A stretch of DNA of 64,000 bases. Source: Escherichia coli. GTDB lineage: Bacteria > Pseudomonadota > Gammaproteobacteria > Enterobacterales > Enterobacteriaceae. How positions within the stretch are numbered: the first letter of the stretch is position 1; each line of letters opens with the position of its first letter. The stretch is from assembly GCF_041886205.1 (NCBI RefSeq), contig NZ_CP169029.1. One strand, 5' to 3'. The position numbers and the translations under genes were made by a program. The notes below the pieces were generated by a model. It was not told where the DNA came from. It did no database searches and worked only from the letters and a program-made list of their open reading frames with translations. Positions 38,731-44,241 of the stretch are shown piece after piece.

Positions 38731-40023
38731 TTACCTGTTTTCCCATAATTTCAGCATCGCTTTGTGATCTTCCTTAAGCACAATATGCGAACGTCTGGCT
38801 CGAATATAACTAATCGCTTCATCAACGGTTTTACAGTGTCCGTAACATAACAACCATGCCGCCACTACCAGCGCACTGCGCGATAATCCCAACGCGCAAT
38901 GGACCAGAACGCTGCCTTGCTCTTCGCGTAATGTTTCCAGCATCGCCACGGCCTGTCGGAGATCCCCCTCTTCCGGAACCACCAGATCCAGCATCGGTAC
39001 ACAGAAATAGAGTCGATCTTTTGTCGCTCGTCCCCGAGGGAATTCAAAGGTGACGTCCAGAACCGCATTCTGTGCCGGAATATGTCGTGGAAACGCCCCT
39101 AAATAAACACCAGCAGTAATTTTGCTCACCGGCTCCAGGCGACGACAAAACCAACGCATAGACAGCCACATCCCGATGCGCCAGGGCAATGTCAGCCAGT
39201 AAACGGCGGGCGGGAGTTTCCCCTGACTATCTTTCCCTGTTGTTATCGCGCCAAGCCCACCGTACCCACGGCCAATAATGAGTAGCGATAATACTGGCCA
39301 ACATAACCAGACTGACCACCATAACTGAATCATCACCATTAGCTCCATCAACACAATGCACGAGCCCGCGCCTACGACATATGGCAGTGCTATTTTGATT
39401 CGACGTTGATCAGGTTTCTGATAATTCCAACGACGATCGACGGGCACCATCCAGTCAATCAACATACCTACCGCCAGCCCTGTGATGACATCAATAAAAT
39501 GATGCTGCCAGGTCGTCAGAGTAGAAATAGCGATGAGTAAAAACCATCCGCCACAGACTTTACGCCACCTCTCAGCCAGATGCTGACGAAAGTGACGCCA
39601 AAGTAGCCAGCAGAGAATAATATGCAGCGAAGGAGACTGGTTATAAGGCAGATCAAACAGTTCAAGTTGCGAAAATAGCCATCCCGTCACCCCACTCACT
39701 TCAGGACGGATAAAACTAAACTTCAGCGGATAGAGCAAAAAACCGCAGCAGGCCATTACCGTTGCCAGAATAAGCCGGTGGACAAGTCGGCGCTGTTCGA
39801 ATGTCGTGCTACAAACGAACAGCGAAAATCCATATAAAAGATCCAGACTCCAGTAAGGAACAATAGTCCAGGGAAGAAAAGGGATCGCCGTTTCCCAACC
39901 GAATACCTGACTGGGGATATCATGGCTGTTAAGGTCCTGAACCGCGGTGAACTGATTAAGAGATCCATAGGTGAAGAAGAAAAACGGGGCCAGCAACAAT
40001 AACCAGCCAGCGCCTTGTAGCAA
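38731..40023 (-). CDS. ynbD: Membrane PAP2-like domain fused to dual-specificity phosphatase domain (YnbD); start uncertain
   Basis: ORF 38731..40179; PAP2-like PSLH and HHFID motifs, C-terminal HCALGLSRS phosphatase P-loop; candidate starts TTG 40023, GTG 40047, ATG 40086. Confidence 0.75.
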
Positions 40024-40036
40024 TACGTTCCGACGT

Positions 40037-41701
40037 TCAGTTATCACGACGCACCGCCATCGAAACCGTAAAAATACCCCACTCATCAATCCGTTGTGTG
40101 CATTTATCAAATCCGGCATCACGCACGAGTGAATCCATCTCCTCTTGCGAACGCACGCGCATGACCCACGGTTTACCATCTTTATGACTGGTTAACACCC
40201 CGGCAATCAGCTCCAGTTGTGGGTGCCACCGCTGCCCGGTGTAGATGAGAATGCCGCCCGGTTCGATGGCATTGGCAAGACCTGCGAGTGAGTTTTTTAC
40301 CTGCTCATTTTCGGGAAAAAGCTCATACAGGCCAGAGACAATCGCCAGCGTAGGCCGCGGAGTTAACGCGCTGAGTTCCTCCGGGTTAAACGCATCGCCC
40401 TGTTCAAAACGCACCCGCCCAGACATTCCCCGTTGAGCAATCATCTCTTGCCCCTGTGCAACATTTAACTCGCTGTAATCACGTAACAAAATATCGCTTA
40501 CGGCAGGCTCGTTTGCCAGTGCATCCAGTACATAGCGCCCATGCCCTGCGGCAATGTCAACCACGCGGACGGCTAAACCTTTGGCGTGGAGATCGGCAAC
40601 GGCTTGTTTAATCAGTATTTGTAAATGGGTTTTGCGCTGGCGAATACCGCGCCAGCCAACACTGTTCAGGTAGATTTTGTCGATTAAGCGCCCGAATGCG
40701 TTACTGCCTTGCGGTTGATTTTGATAGACATAATCCAGCGAACTGCCTGAATCAAAGCCAGTGCTCATTCCGAGATGCAGGCCCGCAGAGTGCGCCCCGA
40801 ACAATTTCATCGCCTTTCGCATAAAGCGATACGCCAAATCAACCGGCGATAATGGCACGGGTCCACCAGAAAGGAGCCGCCATCGATCCGCTGATGGTCC
40901 TGTGCGGTCTTCATGCTGATAATCAAATTTTTGCGACTTGTTAGCATATAAACGACTAATAAAGCTTTGCATTTTTTCAAATGCCTGCGCCCTGTTCTCT
41001 TCACCCAACGTGTCGTGATAAAAGCCTGGCAGCAGATGCAGCTCTTTCAGAGGGCTACGTAATCTCTGATAAAAATCAATCTGCGGTTGACGATGCACCA
41101 CATAGTCATCGCCTGATATCAGAAGTTGCGTGGGGAGCGTAATCGCCGCCGCATCGCTAACAATACGTTCAGACGTTTTATAGAGATCGAGCAAGATATT
41201 GACGGCAATCGCCCGTGTGATCAGCGGATCATTATTGAAACTCGCCACCCGTTGCCGATCGTGGGTCAAATAGCGTCCTTTCACATAGGAATTAATAAAA
41301 AACAGACCACGCAGACGATGCCATAACGCCAGCGCAGGACGTGCCAGCGGCACATACAATTTAACCTTAAAGGCCGGAGAAGCCAGCACCAGCCCGCGAA
41401 TTGCAGGCGCATAATCATGAACCCAAGTTGCAACCAGCACTGCGCCGACGCTTTGCGCGATCACAACCACCTCTTCCAGTCCGACATGGCTGTCGCTGGC
41501 AGCAAAACGGATAAAAATCACGATGGGCAATAGCATAAAGAGGATGGGTTGTGACACCAACATCAACAGCAATCCGGTAAGAAGAGAAAGCGCCAGTGCA
41601 GCAAGAGTGATGTGATTCGCTGTAACGTGGTGATTATAAAGCCAAAACATCGTCGGCCTTAACAGCGACTGAAAGAGCGGTTTTATCTGGTAGAGCGTCA
41701 T
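40037..41701 (-). CDS. ynbC: YnbC-like alpha/beta-hydrolase plus SAM-methyltransferase protein with atypical transmembrane N-terminus (possible ynbA'-'ynbC fusion)
   Basis: ORF 40037..41707 (TTG), ATG at 41701; aa 1-70 hydrophobic, nucleophile-elbow-like AQSVG at ~aa 84-88, methyltransferase motif [11 protein letters not shown] in C-terminal half. Confidence 0.6.
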
Positions 41702-41871
41702 TATCAATCCTTGATAATTCGGTTTGCGCTATGGTGCATCAATTCCCCTGACGGAGATATCGCAACACGCCGCTTCATTAAAAATTCAGAATATATCAAG
41801 GTATTGGGGACTCACTGCCAGGAATGATTATCCCCAATTAATCAAATGGTTAAGAAACATTACGTTGTGGA

Positions 41872-44178
41872 TCAATACAACTCATCAAGTTTTCTCATCG
41901 CTTGTTCCCGTATTGCGCGCGTCTTACCGTTAAGCGCCAGCTGGCGGACTAAATCCAGTTCAGGGTTAACAAGCTCTAACGCCAGCAAAGGATCACGTTT
42001 CAGCCTCGCCTTTAATACATCAACTGGAAAACGGGGATTATTCATCGCCACAATCCACCACTCGGGATCAATTTCTGCCGCCAGTACTGCAGGCGGTGTG
42101 TGGCGGTTGTTAAGTGCGCCGAACTTGAAAAATGTGAGATTGCTTTTCGCCAGTGTACTCCACCATATACGATCCGGTTGTTTTGCCAGTACATCCAGTT
42201 GTGCTAACGCATCGGGGTCGAGTGCATAATAAACACGTAATGCTTCATCAACCTGCGCACGGGAGCTGTTTTCCTGCCTCAGAAAAAACTTCGCCCAAAT
42301 ATCATTGCGTGGCGTATTTTGCTGTAATTCCTTGAGGACAACAGCGGGTAAATTATCCCAACTAACTAATGCACTCTCTAAAAAGTCCCAGTCTTCCAAA
42401 CGTATCAGGGCGGTGGCATTTAATAGCATCTGGTCATCAACTTCACCGTGGCTGATAAGCTCAGACAAAATCATATCAGCGCTGGTTTCATATGCAGCTG
42501 AATCTGCTTTCGGATTATTTTTCCGATGTGATAAAGCACGTTGCCAAATTTTTTGTTTCATCGCCGTACTCAGATACTGATTTTTCGCCAGATTACTCCA
42601 CCCCTCAGGATCGTTGAAACGTGTCAATAACCGTTGTAAAGCAGCGTCAGAGTGAATTACCTGCATATCCCGACAGCAAAAGTAGGCAGGGGATTTTTTC
42701 TCCATCCTTTTAACAAAATTAAACTGTAAGTTATCTGGCAACGCTAAAAATAACGCACCTATTAGATCATCGTCATTCTCGAATTTTTGGTATAAATATA
42801 CTGCTATTTTGTCACTCTCTTGTGGCGTCATCCGCAACAATTGACCATGGTGTTTCATCTCTGCCAGCTTTAACGCTAAGCTTGTGACAACATCGTTTGA
42901 TGAATCGTTCGCCAACTGCATTGCCTGATTGTAGGTGAGTTGTCCTCCAGCACCGACCTGACGAATAGAGGAATCATCACTGCGGATATAGCCATCAATA
43001 ATGGATTCGGGCAATAACCACGCATCTTTATAAAGCTCCTGAATGATCATATCCCAATCTCTTTTCGCCAGAGTCATGACGATATCCAGAGGGAGATTTT
43101 CACGTAGCGCAAGATTCAACGGACCGACACCATCAGGTAGATGACTCATTCGCGTCATTATTTCGACAGAGAGCGGTTCACGGTCGAGCAACCCCAGAAC
43201 AACAGGCTGGTAACCCAATTGCTGATCGGTCAACTCCAGAATCTCATTGTCCGGCATATATCTCGCCATACTTTCAATCGTTTGTTCATCATTGCTATTA
43301 ATAAGTTGTTTGCGTAGGTTAGCTGAAATTCCTTTAAGCCTTGGGAGAGTTCGCATTATGGCAAGATCAAATGTCGCAATATCTCGTCCTTCAAATGCAG
43401 CAACGTTGCCTTCATCCAGCATTTGCAATTCCTGCACTAACTCAGGAGAAGGCTTAGGGCGAAACAGCGCTTCTTTTTTCATCTGATTACAGACATTCCC
43501 TGCCATGCGAATATTGCTTCGCTTAAAAATTTCTTTCAGAGCATCTTCATCATTTATTCGACCCTAATAATATGCATCAGGATTTATTATCATCAGCGCT
43601 TTTTTGACATTTTCAGTGTCATTTTTGTCACTCGCACGGACCATGAATTCACTATTTGTCGAAGACGCAACAACAGGTGCAATTATGTCATTGATAAATA
43701 TCCCACGCGCATTAATACTCCCCTTAATCGTAGACGGATTATCGTAATATGAGTCGATAAATACCAGTCCACTTGCATTTATCGAACCGGTAATTAACAG
43801 TGGCGAATCTGTAACTATATTTGTTGCCGTCACGTTACCGAGAATAACCCATGGATTAGAAAGAGAGAAAGTGGAAATATTACCTTTGACTGTCAAATTG
43901 CCAAGAACAATCAATTTTTGATTACTCTCTATATTACCTTCTACCACTAAATCGCCACGATGCACTTTCCAGTCCGATGCAGATAAACCGAAGGGGACAA
44001 GATTCACGCTACTGTTGATAGCTTGTTCAACTTGTTGTTTATCTTCAGCGGTAGCTGCAGATAAAAATGGTTCAATATCAACTGCATTTGCAACACATCG
44101 AAGTTCCGCCTGTACTGGAAGACTCAGCATAAACAGGGGAAGTAAACCTATCCAGCTGCAAATCCTGGGCTTAAACAT
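41872..44178 (-). pseudogene. ydbD: ydbD (DUF2773) split by in-frame amber codon into 204/206-aa and 544-aa ORFs
   Basis: ORFs 43564..44184 and 41872..43506 are in the same frame, separated by TAG at 43564..43566 and 19 open codons; total matches a 768-codon frame from ATG 44178. Confidence 0.65.
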
Positions 44179-44241
44179 ATGCACTCCATGCCATTAAAAA
44201 AGAAACAAAAGGGAAATGCATCTTTCCCTTTTGTATATTCG

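Follow-up and report, generated by a model that had tools for sequence, protein, structure and literature searches.

A 1,610-bp deletion in the ynbABCD operon and a nonsense mutation in the neighbouring gene ydbD of Escherichia coli

The ynb operon in K-12 and in other genera

The ynbABCD operon of Escherichia coli K-12 (b1408-b1411) lies between pdxI/ydbD and azoR-hrpA, and ynbB is its sole experimentally characterised gene. Here we analyse this operon and its neighbour ydbD in a stretch of 64,000 nucleotides from the E. coli contig NZ_CP169029.1 (the window), in which the locus occupies the same site, the retained sequence is 97-98% identical to that of K-12 and the retained parts encode the same domains, but ynbB is absent. 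A 1,610-bp deletion has removed ynbB together with adjoining parts of ynbA and ynbC, joining the remnants of the latter two genes in frame, and ydbD carries an amber codon. Very probably, a dispensable accessory locus has here decayed neutrally, or nearly so, in a single commensal lineage of E. coli.

YnbB is a CdsA paralogue that makes CDP-diacylglycerol (CDP-DAG) and N-acetylglucosamine-pyrophosphoryl-diacylglycerol (GlcNAc-PP-DAG), the precursor of membrane protein integrase (MPIase) (PMC6362211, PMC7018664, PMC11413397). Its overproduction raises MPIase levels, and both ynbB and cdsA are induced by cold (PMC6362211, PMC7018664, PMC11413397, a 2026 preprint). The gene is non-essential, with normal growth and normal MPIase levels in a knockout (PMC6362211, PMC7018664), and a role in growth in the cold is reported for YnbB in a 2023 FEMS paper, as cited in PMC11413397. 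The initial annotation of the window, which described the locus as a lipid module of no assigned function, thus did not take account of the experimental work on YnbB (CDP-DAG, MPIase precursor). It also did not describe the complete loss of ynbB from the window.

The other three intact proteins resemble enzymes of lipid metabolism. The best NCBIfam families for intact YnbA are NF045883 and NF040950, synthases of phosphatidylinositol phosphate (PIP) and archaetidylinositol phosphate (AIP), scoring 75.1 bits (cut-off 180) and 47.3 bits (cut-off 170); as all scores fall below the curated cut-offs, YnbA is not a member of the PIP/AIP synthase families by the NCBI criterion. Its closest solved structures are mycobacterial PIP synthases. 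The N-terminal domain of YnbC matches monoacylglycerol lipases. The C-terminus of YnbD belongs to the dual-specificity phosphatases, with a DSPc domain (PF00782, E 2e-26) and an HCx5R loop (HCALGLSRS, residues 383-391), and its relatives in the PDB are dual-specificity phosphatases, including the lipid phosphatase PTPMT1. At the N-terminus of YnbD the matches are weak (PAP2_3, 1.3e-4; PAP2, 1.7e-4), and PSLH and HHFID segments were seen there by eye, unaligned.

Taken together, the intact operon is most likely the source of a minor membrane lipid derived from CDP-DAG. In the scheme that we propose from these homologies, and to which we give about even chances, YnbB would supply CDP-DAG, the step shown experimentally in the literature; the PIP-synthase-like YnbA would transfer a phosphatidyl group onto an alcohol that bears a phosphate; YnbD, through its PTPMT1-like phosphatase domain, would take this phosphate off the resulting phosphatidyl-alcohol-phosphate; and YnbC would deacylate and/or methylate the dephosphorylated lipid. 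The same logic of synthase followed by phosphatase is found in the two-step pathways for PIP and phosphatidylglycerol phosphate (PIP synthase or PgsA, then PTPMT1 or PgpA/B/C). However, these pathways have no counterpart to the ynb lipase/methyltransferase fusion, and in the window the synthase is destroyed. To our knowledge, E. coli has no inositol-phosphate synthase.

Outside E. coli, YnbA orthologues (69-75% identity) have a patchy distribution, in Citrobacter, Buttiauxella, Pectobacterium, Serratia, Salmonella bongori, Vibrio fluvialis, Snodgrassella, and Orbaceae. The operons of S. bongori (L017:8001-13604), at the same azoR-hrpA site as in E. coli, and of Snodgrassella (L013:8001-13589) comprise six genes, with orthologues of YnbA (70% identity), YnbB, YnbC, and YnbD in the E. 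coli order, a PlsC-like acyltransferase gene between ynbB and ynbC, and a gene for a membrane protein of ~135 aa after ynbD. By contrast, the acyltransferase and the small membrane protein are absent from intact E. coli operons, and the window lacks still more; a tblastn search of the window with the two S. bongori proteins gave no match. Pectobacterium (L018:7001-11095) has ynbA, ynbC, ynbD, and the small protein gene, with ynbB absent, and V. fluvialis (L015:8001-12420), where the operon adjoins a resolvase gene, keeps the same four genes beside a ynbB stub of 130 aa. The small protein is 35-55% identical among these taxa and matches no Pfam or NCBIfam family. From these gene contents, the conserved core appears to consist of YnbA, YnbC, YnbD, and the small protein, with YnbB optional, and the intact E. 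coli operon would itself be a reduced version. This core, including a membrane protein that E. coli lacks, could guide a search for the lipid product.

The deletion, the ydbD lesion, and their distribution

A BLAST comparison with LD91-1, a strain whose locus is intact, splits the window into two collinear blocks; these share three bases, and in LD91-1 they are separated by 1,610 bp (feature coordinates are given in Table 1). The deletion takes out codons 66-201 of ynbA, the whole of ynbB (298 codons), and codons 1-96 of ynbC. At window 41507-41509 the junction reads ...GCAGCAAAACG followed by GATAAAAAT..., and the ACG common to both sides lies within an imperfect 8-bp similarity (GCAAAACG versus GCCATACG), an anatomy that bears the signature of an illegitimate, microhomology-mediated deletion. 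Because the frame of ynbC is shifted by 2 relative to that of ynbA and 1,610 equals 2 modulo 3, the two remnants are joined in frame into one open reading frame (ORF).

The catalytic DGxxAR...G...D...D motif of YnbA (K-12 residues 72-98) falls within the deletion, and a Pfam search of the chimera for the CDP-alcohol phosphatidyltransferase domain (PF01066) gave no match, so the ynbA stub is not recognised as a member of that family. On the ynbC side, the chimera lacks the 96 N-terminal residues of YnbC and matches Hydrolase_4 (PF12146) at model positions 71-238 of 239, whereas in intact K-12 YnbC the match starts at model position 3. The AQSVG nucleophile motif is retained in an otherwise incomplete Hydrolase_4 fold. 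Methyltransf_20 (PF12147), a class I S-adenosylmethionine-dependent methyltransferase domain, is present at full length (model 1-309 of 309, E 9e-152); a literature search on Methyltransf_20 / PF12147 returned no result.

The second lesion is a TAG at window 43564-43566, codon 205 of ydbD, after which the frame carries on directly. Codon 205 is TGG (Trp205) in four other ydbD alleles. The amber cuts off three-quarters of YdbD, leaving before the stop a signal-peptide-like N-terminus and a beta-helix (bactofilin-like) region. DUF2773 (PF10971) lies at residues 688-768 of intact YdbD in Pfam; because the amber precedes it, the translated product is without this domain, although the DNA encoding it is still there. 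Bactofilin (PF04519), after which the NCBI Prokaryotic Genome Annotation Pipeline (PGAP) names YdbD, is a marginal Pfam match (E 0.05, residues 78-138), and full-length YdbD has no match in NCBIfam.

The ynbA-ynbC fusion, the ydbD amber, the minus-strand gene order, and the domains (Hydrolase_4, Methyltransf_20, weak PAP2 with DSPc, and DUF2773, all recovered with Pfam) had been recognised in the initial annotation, and each held up: the gene order follows from the window ORFs, and the 1,610-bp gap against LD91-1, the TGG to TAG change, and the PGAP pseudogene calls confirm both lesions as real and loss-of-function. Orthology to the E. coli ydbD-ynbABCD locus is borne out by synteny (pdxI, ydbD, ynbA-D, azoR, hrpA) and by 96-100% identity of the retained segments to other E. 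coli genomes, whereas the five genes do not all have complete frames (ynbB is missing, ynbA and ynbC are cut short, and the TAG interrupts ydbD). The genome of E. coli wlxctx60 is 100% identical to window 36500-46700 by BLAST, and in it PGAP annotates an intact ynbD, a CDP-alcohol phosphatidyltransferase ‘missing C-terminus’, a hydrolase/methyltransferase ‘missing N-terminus’, and a ydbD with ‘internal stop’. The pseudogene status of ynbA, ynbC, and ydbD is thus already marked in an identical genome. A sequencing or assembly artefact, named in the initial annotation as a possible refutation, is ruled out, with the junction in 189 independent complete genomes and the 61-mer spanning the amber in 7.

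These counts come from a search of 5,426 complete E. coli genomes, a collection biased to clinical isolates. Of these, 3,758 (~69%) contain 80% or more of the interval from ydbD to ynbD as defined in K-12. The exact deletion junction occurs in 3.5% of the collection and the exact amber 61-mer in 0.13%, every amber genome belonging to the deletion lineage. The same pdxI-azoR interval has undergone losses with other breakpoints and other gene content elsewhere in the species. No match to any part of the locus is found in 804 genomes, such as MS14384, where pdxI lies 113 bp from azoR (L019:2576-4155); in Z1323HEC0477 a deletion has one end inside pdxI and the other at the last 291 nt of ynbD (L008:6670-7292); and ~550 genomes (an estimate from evenly spaced rows), among them the B2 strain clone D i2, have an intact ynbABCD with ydbD missing. 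Further lesions in other E. coli include insertion sequences (IS) in ynbC and ynbB and a Tn3 insertion. Overall, this accessory region varies in presence among E. coli genomes and has undergone many losses, and it is dispensable because a ynbB knockout is normal, because 804 genomes lack the locus, and because other lesions have arisen independently.

Both the locus and this kind of event are known, and automated annotation had flagged the case before; as routine pseudogenisation it has little importance alone. It is only mildly unusual in that one in-frame deletion allele occurs across several haplotype backgrounds, and in providing natural ynbB-null strains. Together with the ~800 genomes without the locus, the 189 deletion carriers are natural ynbB-nulls, showing that the proposed backup route to MPIase, an essential glycolipid, is dispensable in nature, and they are ready material for studying the reported cold-growth role of YnbB.

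Order of events, selection, and alternative explanations

The deletion carriers fall into two classes. Class 1 has the window-type right-flank allele with three private substitutions, and class 2 comprises the ~173 junction carriers whose flank is 96% identical to that of the window. The class-1 allele is present in 18 genomes, all of them deletion carriers; 7 of the 18 have the amber, B-1109 combines the deletion with an intact ydbD, and two of the amber genomes carry a Tn3/IS26 insertion in the ynbA stub. These nested counts place the deletion first, the amber second, and further erosion last.

In the lineage of the window, one illegitimate-recombination event at the 3-bp microhomology removed 1,610 bp, including the catalytic two-thirds of YnbA. 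With the catalytic part of YnbA, YnbB, and the N-terminus of YnbC gone, the committed step is lost and the pathway is dead, whatever its product. The in-frame join of the remnants is coincidental, a later and unrelated point mutation (W205*) in the same lineage inactivated the neighbour ydbD, and ynbD and the methyltransferase half of ynbC would still be intact through too little time for decay.

Relaxed selection on the locus, as proposed in the initial annotation, is plausible given the stepwise lesions, but neither ynbD nor the ynbC remnant allows it to be demonstrated. Both are open, with no extra lesions, in the four of four carriers examined, and both are very close to their alleles in intact strains. 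The ratio of nonsynonymous to synonymous differences per site (pN/pS, Nei-Gojobori) is 0.12-0.4 for both genes, alike in pairs with and without a deletion carrier, and there are too few changes for statistical power: the ynbD alleles of carriers are 1-4 nt from those of intact strains (1 nt between the window and LD91-1). The deletion is therefore recent when set against the divergence among alleles, and the pN/pS comparison, which had been suggested as a check on relaxed selection, speaks neither way. Among class-2-specific changes in the ynbC remnant, 5 of 9 are nonsynonymous versus 19 of 57 in intact alleles, a difference that is not significant.

The ynbA stub, with three to four nonsynonymous and no synonymous lineage-specific changes, is the sole drift-like part. 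In the window these changes, at 41518, 41554, and 41633, are all nonsynonymous, all G:C to T:A, and all within 125 bp of the junction, and among ~4,100 genomes with the segment they occur in the 18 class-1 carriers only. If the stub were under the same purifying selection as other parts of the operon, its pattern would have a probability of ~0.02 by a rough calculation. The clustered changes could result from drift or from mutagenic repair tied to the deletion.

Several observations weigh against neutral decay after one deletion. The operon pathway was derived from homology only, with all NCBIfam matches under curated cut-offs. All four deletion carriers examined keep the chimeric frame open. 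In addition to the amber in 7 of 18 class-1 genomes, an independent ydbD frameshift near codon 37 is present in 65 of the ~173 class-2 carriers, which could hint at a link between the two losses. Finally, class 1 and class 2 have different bases close to the junction, at 12-21 bp on its left side and at 9 bp on its right, and a history of one event in one lineage is therefore incomplete, requiring either reshuffling of the flanks by recombination or recurrent deletion.

The breakpoints themselves are identical in the two classes. On the left side, the class-1 flank is shared without any difference by ~40 intact genomes, and the class-2 flank was seen in deletion carriers only, as was the class-1 flank on the right side. 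The window is a mosaic, in which 40934-41151 resembles class 2 and LD91-1 and 41156-41506 matches C8 and ECONIH4, both intact strains, without a difference, and this recombinant patch ends at the deletion junction. Within class 2, a switch of right-flank haplotype occurs less than 30 bp from the junction. These positions suggest that the 1.6-kb heterology limits recombination tracts. The evidence leans towards a single old deletion with repeatedly replaced flanks; recurrence of the deletion at the same microhomology is less likely.

Among the alternatives to neutral decay, the one that survives best follows the initial annotation in treating ydbD and ynbABCD as one lipid-modification module, so that breakage of the ynb genes would have relaxed selection on ydbD and led to the amber. 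Consistent with this, the two independent ydbD inactivations are nested in two deletion classes (amber n=7, frameshift n=65), and ydbD and the ynb genes are adjacent on the same strand with no terminator-like hairpin predicted between them. However, two independent events make a statistical test impossible, the deletion carriers B-1109 and A29 (the latter of class 2) have ydbD intact, and ydbD is hit by an IS or a partial deletion beside intact ynb genes in other genomes (H175, H206; H126, H136, H161). Moreover, ynbA has its own BglJ-RcsB-activated promoter, mapped in the ydbD-ynbA spacer of K-12 in a study that also suggests relief of H-NS repression as a possible mode of activation at some BglJ-RcsB targets (PMC3950696). 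A simple scan of this spacer for the sigma-70 consensus found no site, a negative that says little because the published promoter is activator-dependent. It follows from the ~550 E. coli genomes with four intact ynb genes and no ydbD, from this separate promoter, and from the lack of a DUF2773 neighbour at the ynb operons of S. bongori, Snodgrassella, V. fluvialis, and Pectobacterium that ydbD is independent: it is a separate transcription unit outside the ynb operon and an unrelated neighbour. We regard the single module as very unlikely.

It is more doubtful still that the chimera is a selected new gene, in which the two YnbA helices would hold the methyltransferase at the membrane and it would act as a partner of YnbD, the deletion allele being kept or spread by selection. 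The junction is found on at least two to three local haplotype backgrounds in its 189 genomes, the open chimeric frame retains a complete Methyltransf_20 beside an intact ynbD, and the promoter region is conserved, with 1 difference from LD91-1 and 5 from K-12 among the 170 positions of the spacer. On the other hand, a junction falls in frame by chance one time in three, and the hydrolase of the chimera, minus its first ~70 model positions, is probably unable to fold. The changes in the YnbA part are as under drift, two descendants carry a transposon in the stub, and the nonsynonymous share of the class-2 changes in the ynbC part is not lower than in intact alleles. We give even less credence to the wider version in which the deletion allele was favoured, through recombinational spread or recurrence, and its in-frame product functions with YnbD, the locus being remodelled and not eroded.

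Least probable of all is adaptive loss of the locus, for instance of a costly lipid or one targeted in phage or host recognition: there are at least five independent kinds of lesion in E. coli (absence of the whole locus in ~800 genomes, the 1,610-bp deletion, the pdxI-to-ynbD deletion, IS in ynbC/ynbB, and Tn3), and ynbB has decayed in V. fluvialis and is absent in Pectobacterium, but the full locus persists in ~69% of genomes with pN/pS between intact alleles that points to purifying selection, the cost of an operon that is H-NS-silenced in the laboratory is probably low (PMC3950696), and repeated loss is equally expected of a weakly selected accessory operon.

Feature layout and neighbouring genes

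Table 1. Coordinates of the ydbD-ynb locus and its neighbours in the window.
Feature	Position	Strand	Remarks
hrpA	33972-37874	minus	from the window ORF list
azoR	38075-38680	plus	
ynbD	38731-40047	minus	intact; membrane PAP2-like domain and C-terminal dual-specificity phosphatase; PGAP start, ORF
Chimeric in-frame ORF YnbA(1-65)-YnbC(97-585), 554 aa	40037-41701	minus	two pseudogene fragments in PGAP
ynbC 3' 84% (codons 97-585)	40037-41506	minus	hydrolase truncated, Methyltransf_20 complete
Deletion junction	41507-41509		3-bp microhomology (ACG on the plus strand; Arg65 codon of the chimera)
ynbA stub, codons 1-64 (192 nt)	41510-41701	minus	two predicted transmembrane segments
ydbD-ynbA spacer, 170 positions	41702-41871	minus	
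ydbD pseudogene	41872-44178	minus	W205 TGG>TAG
ydbD ORF piece, 544 aa	41872-43506	minus	
ydbD ORF piece, 206 aa	43564-44184	minus	
pdxI (ydbC)	44242-45102	minus	
ydbA-type autotransporter ORF, 1,961 aa	45311-51196	minus	

The start of ynbD is unsettled. Its open frame runs to 40179, 44 codons upstream of the PGAP start, overlapping the end of ynbC, and the K-12 annotation places the start 8 codons further downstream (430 aa versus 438 aa). At the other end of the locus, the gap between pdxI and ydbD contains a hairpin at window 44205-44234 with a perfect 12-bp stem and T-runs on both strands, which resembles a bidirectional terminator and would part ydbD from pdxI transcription.

Beyond pdxI, ydbA was considered as a third pseudogene, as PGAP flags it with an ‘internal stop’ in wlxctx60, whose identity to the window was established for 36500-46700 only. 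This is ruled out for the window, where the ORF is unbroken. It extends from a signal peptide through a C-terminal barrel without interruption, and the K-12 copy is split by IS2 and IS30. In some relatives, paaXY occupies the position of the ydbA-type autotransporter.

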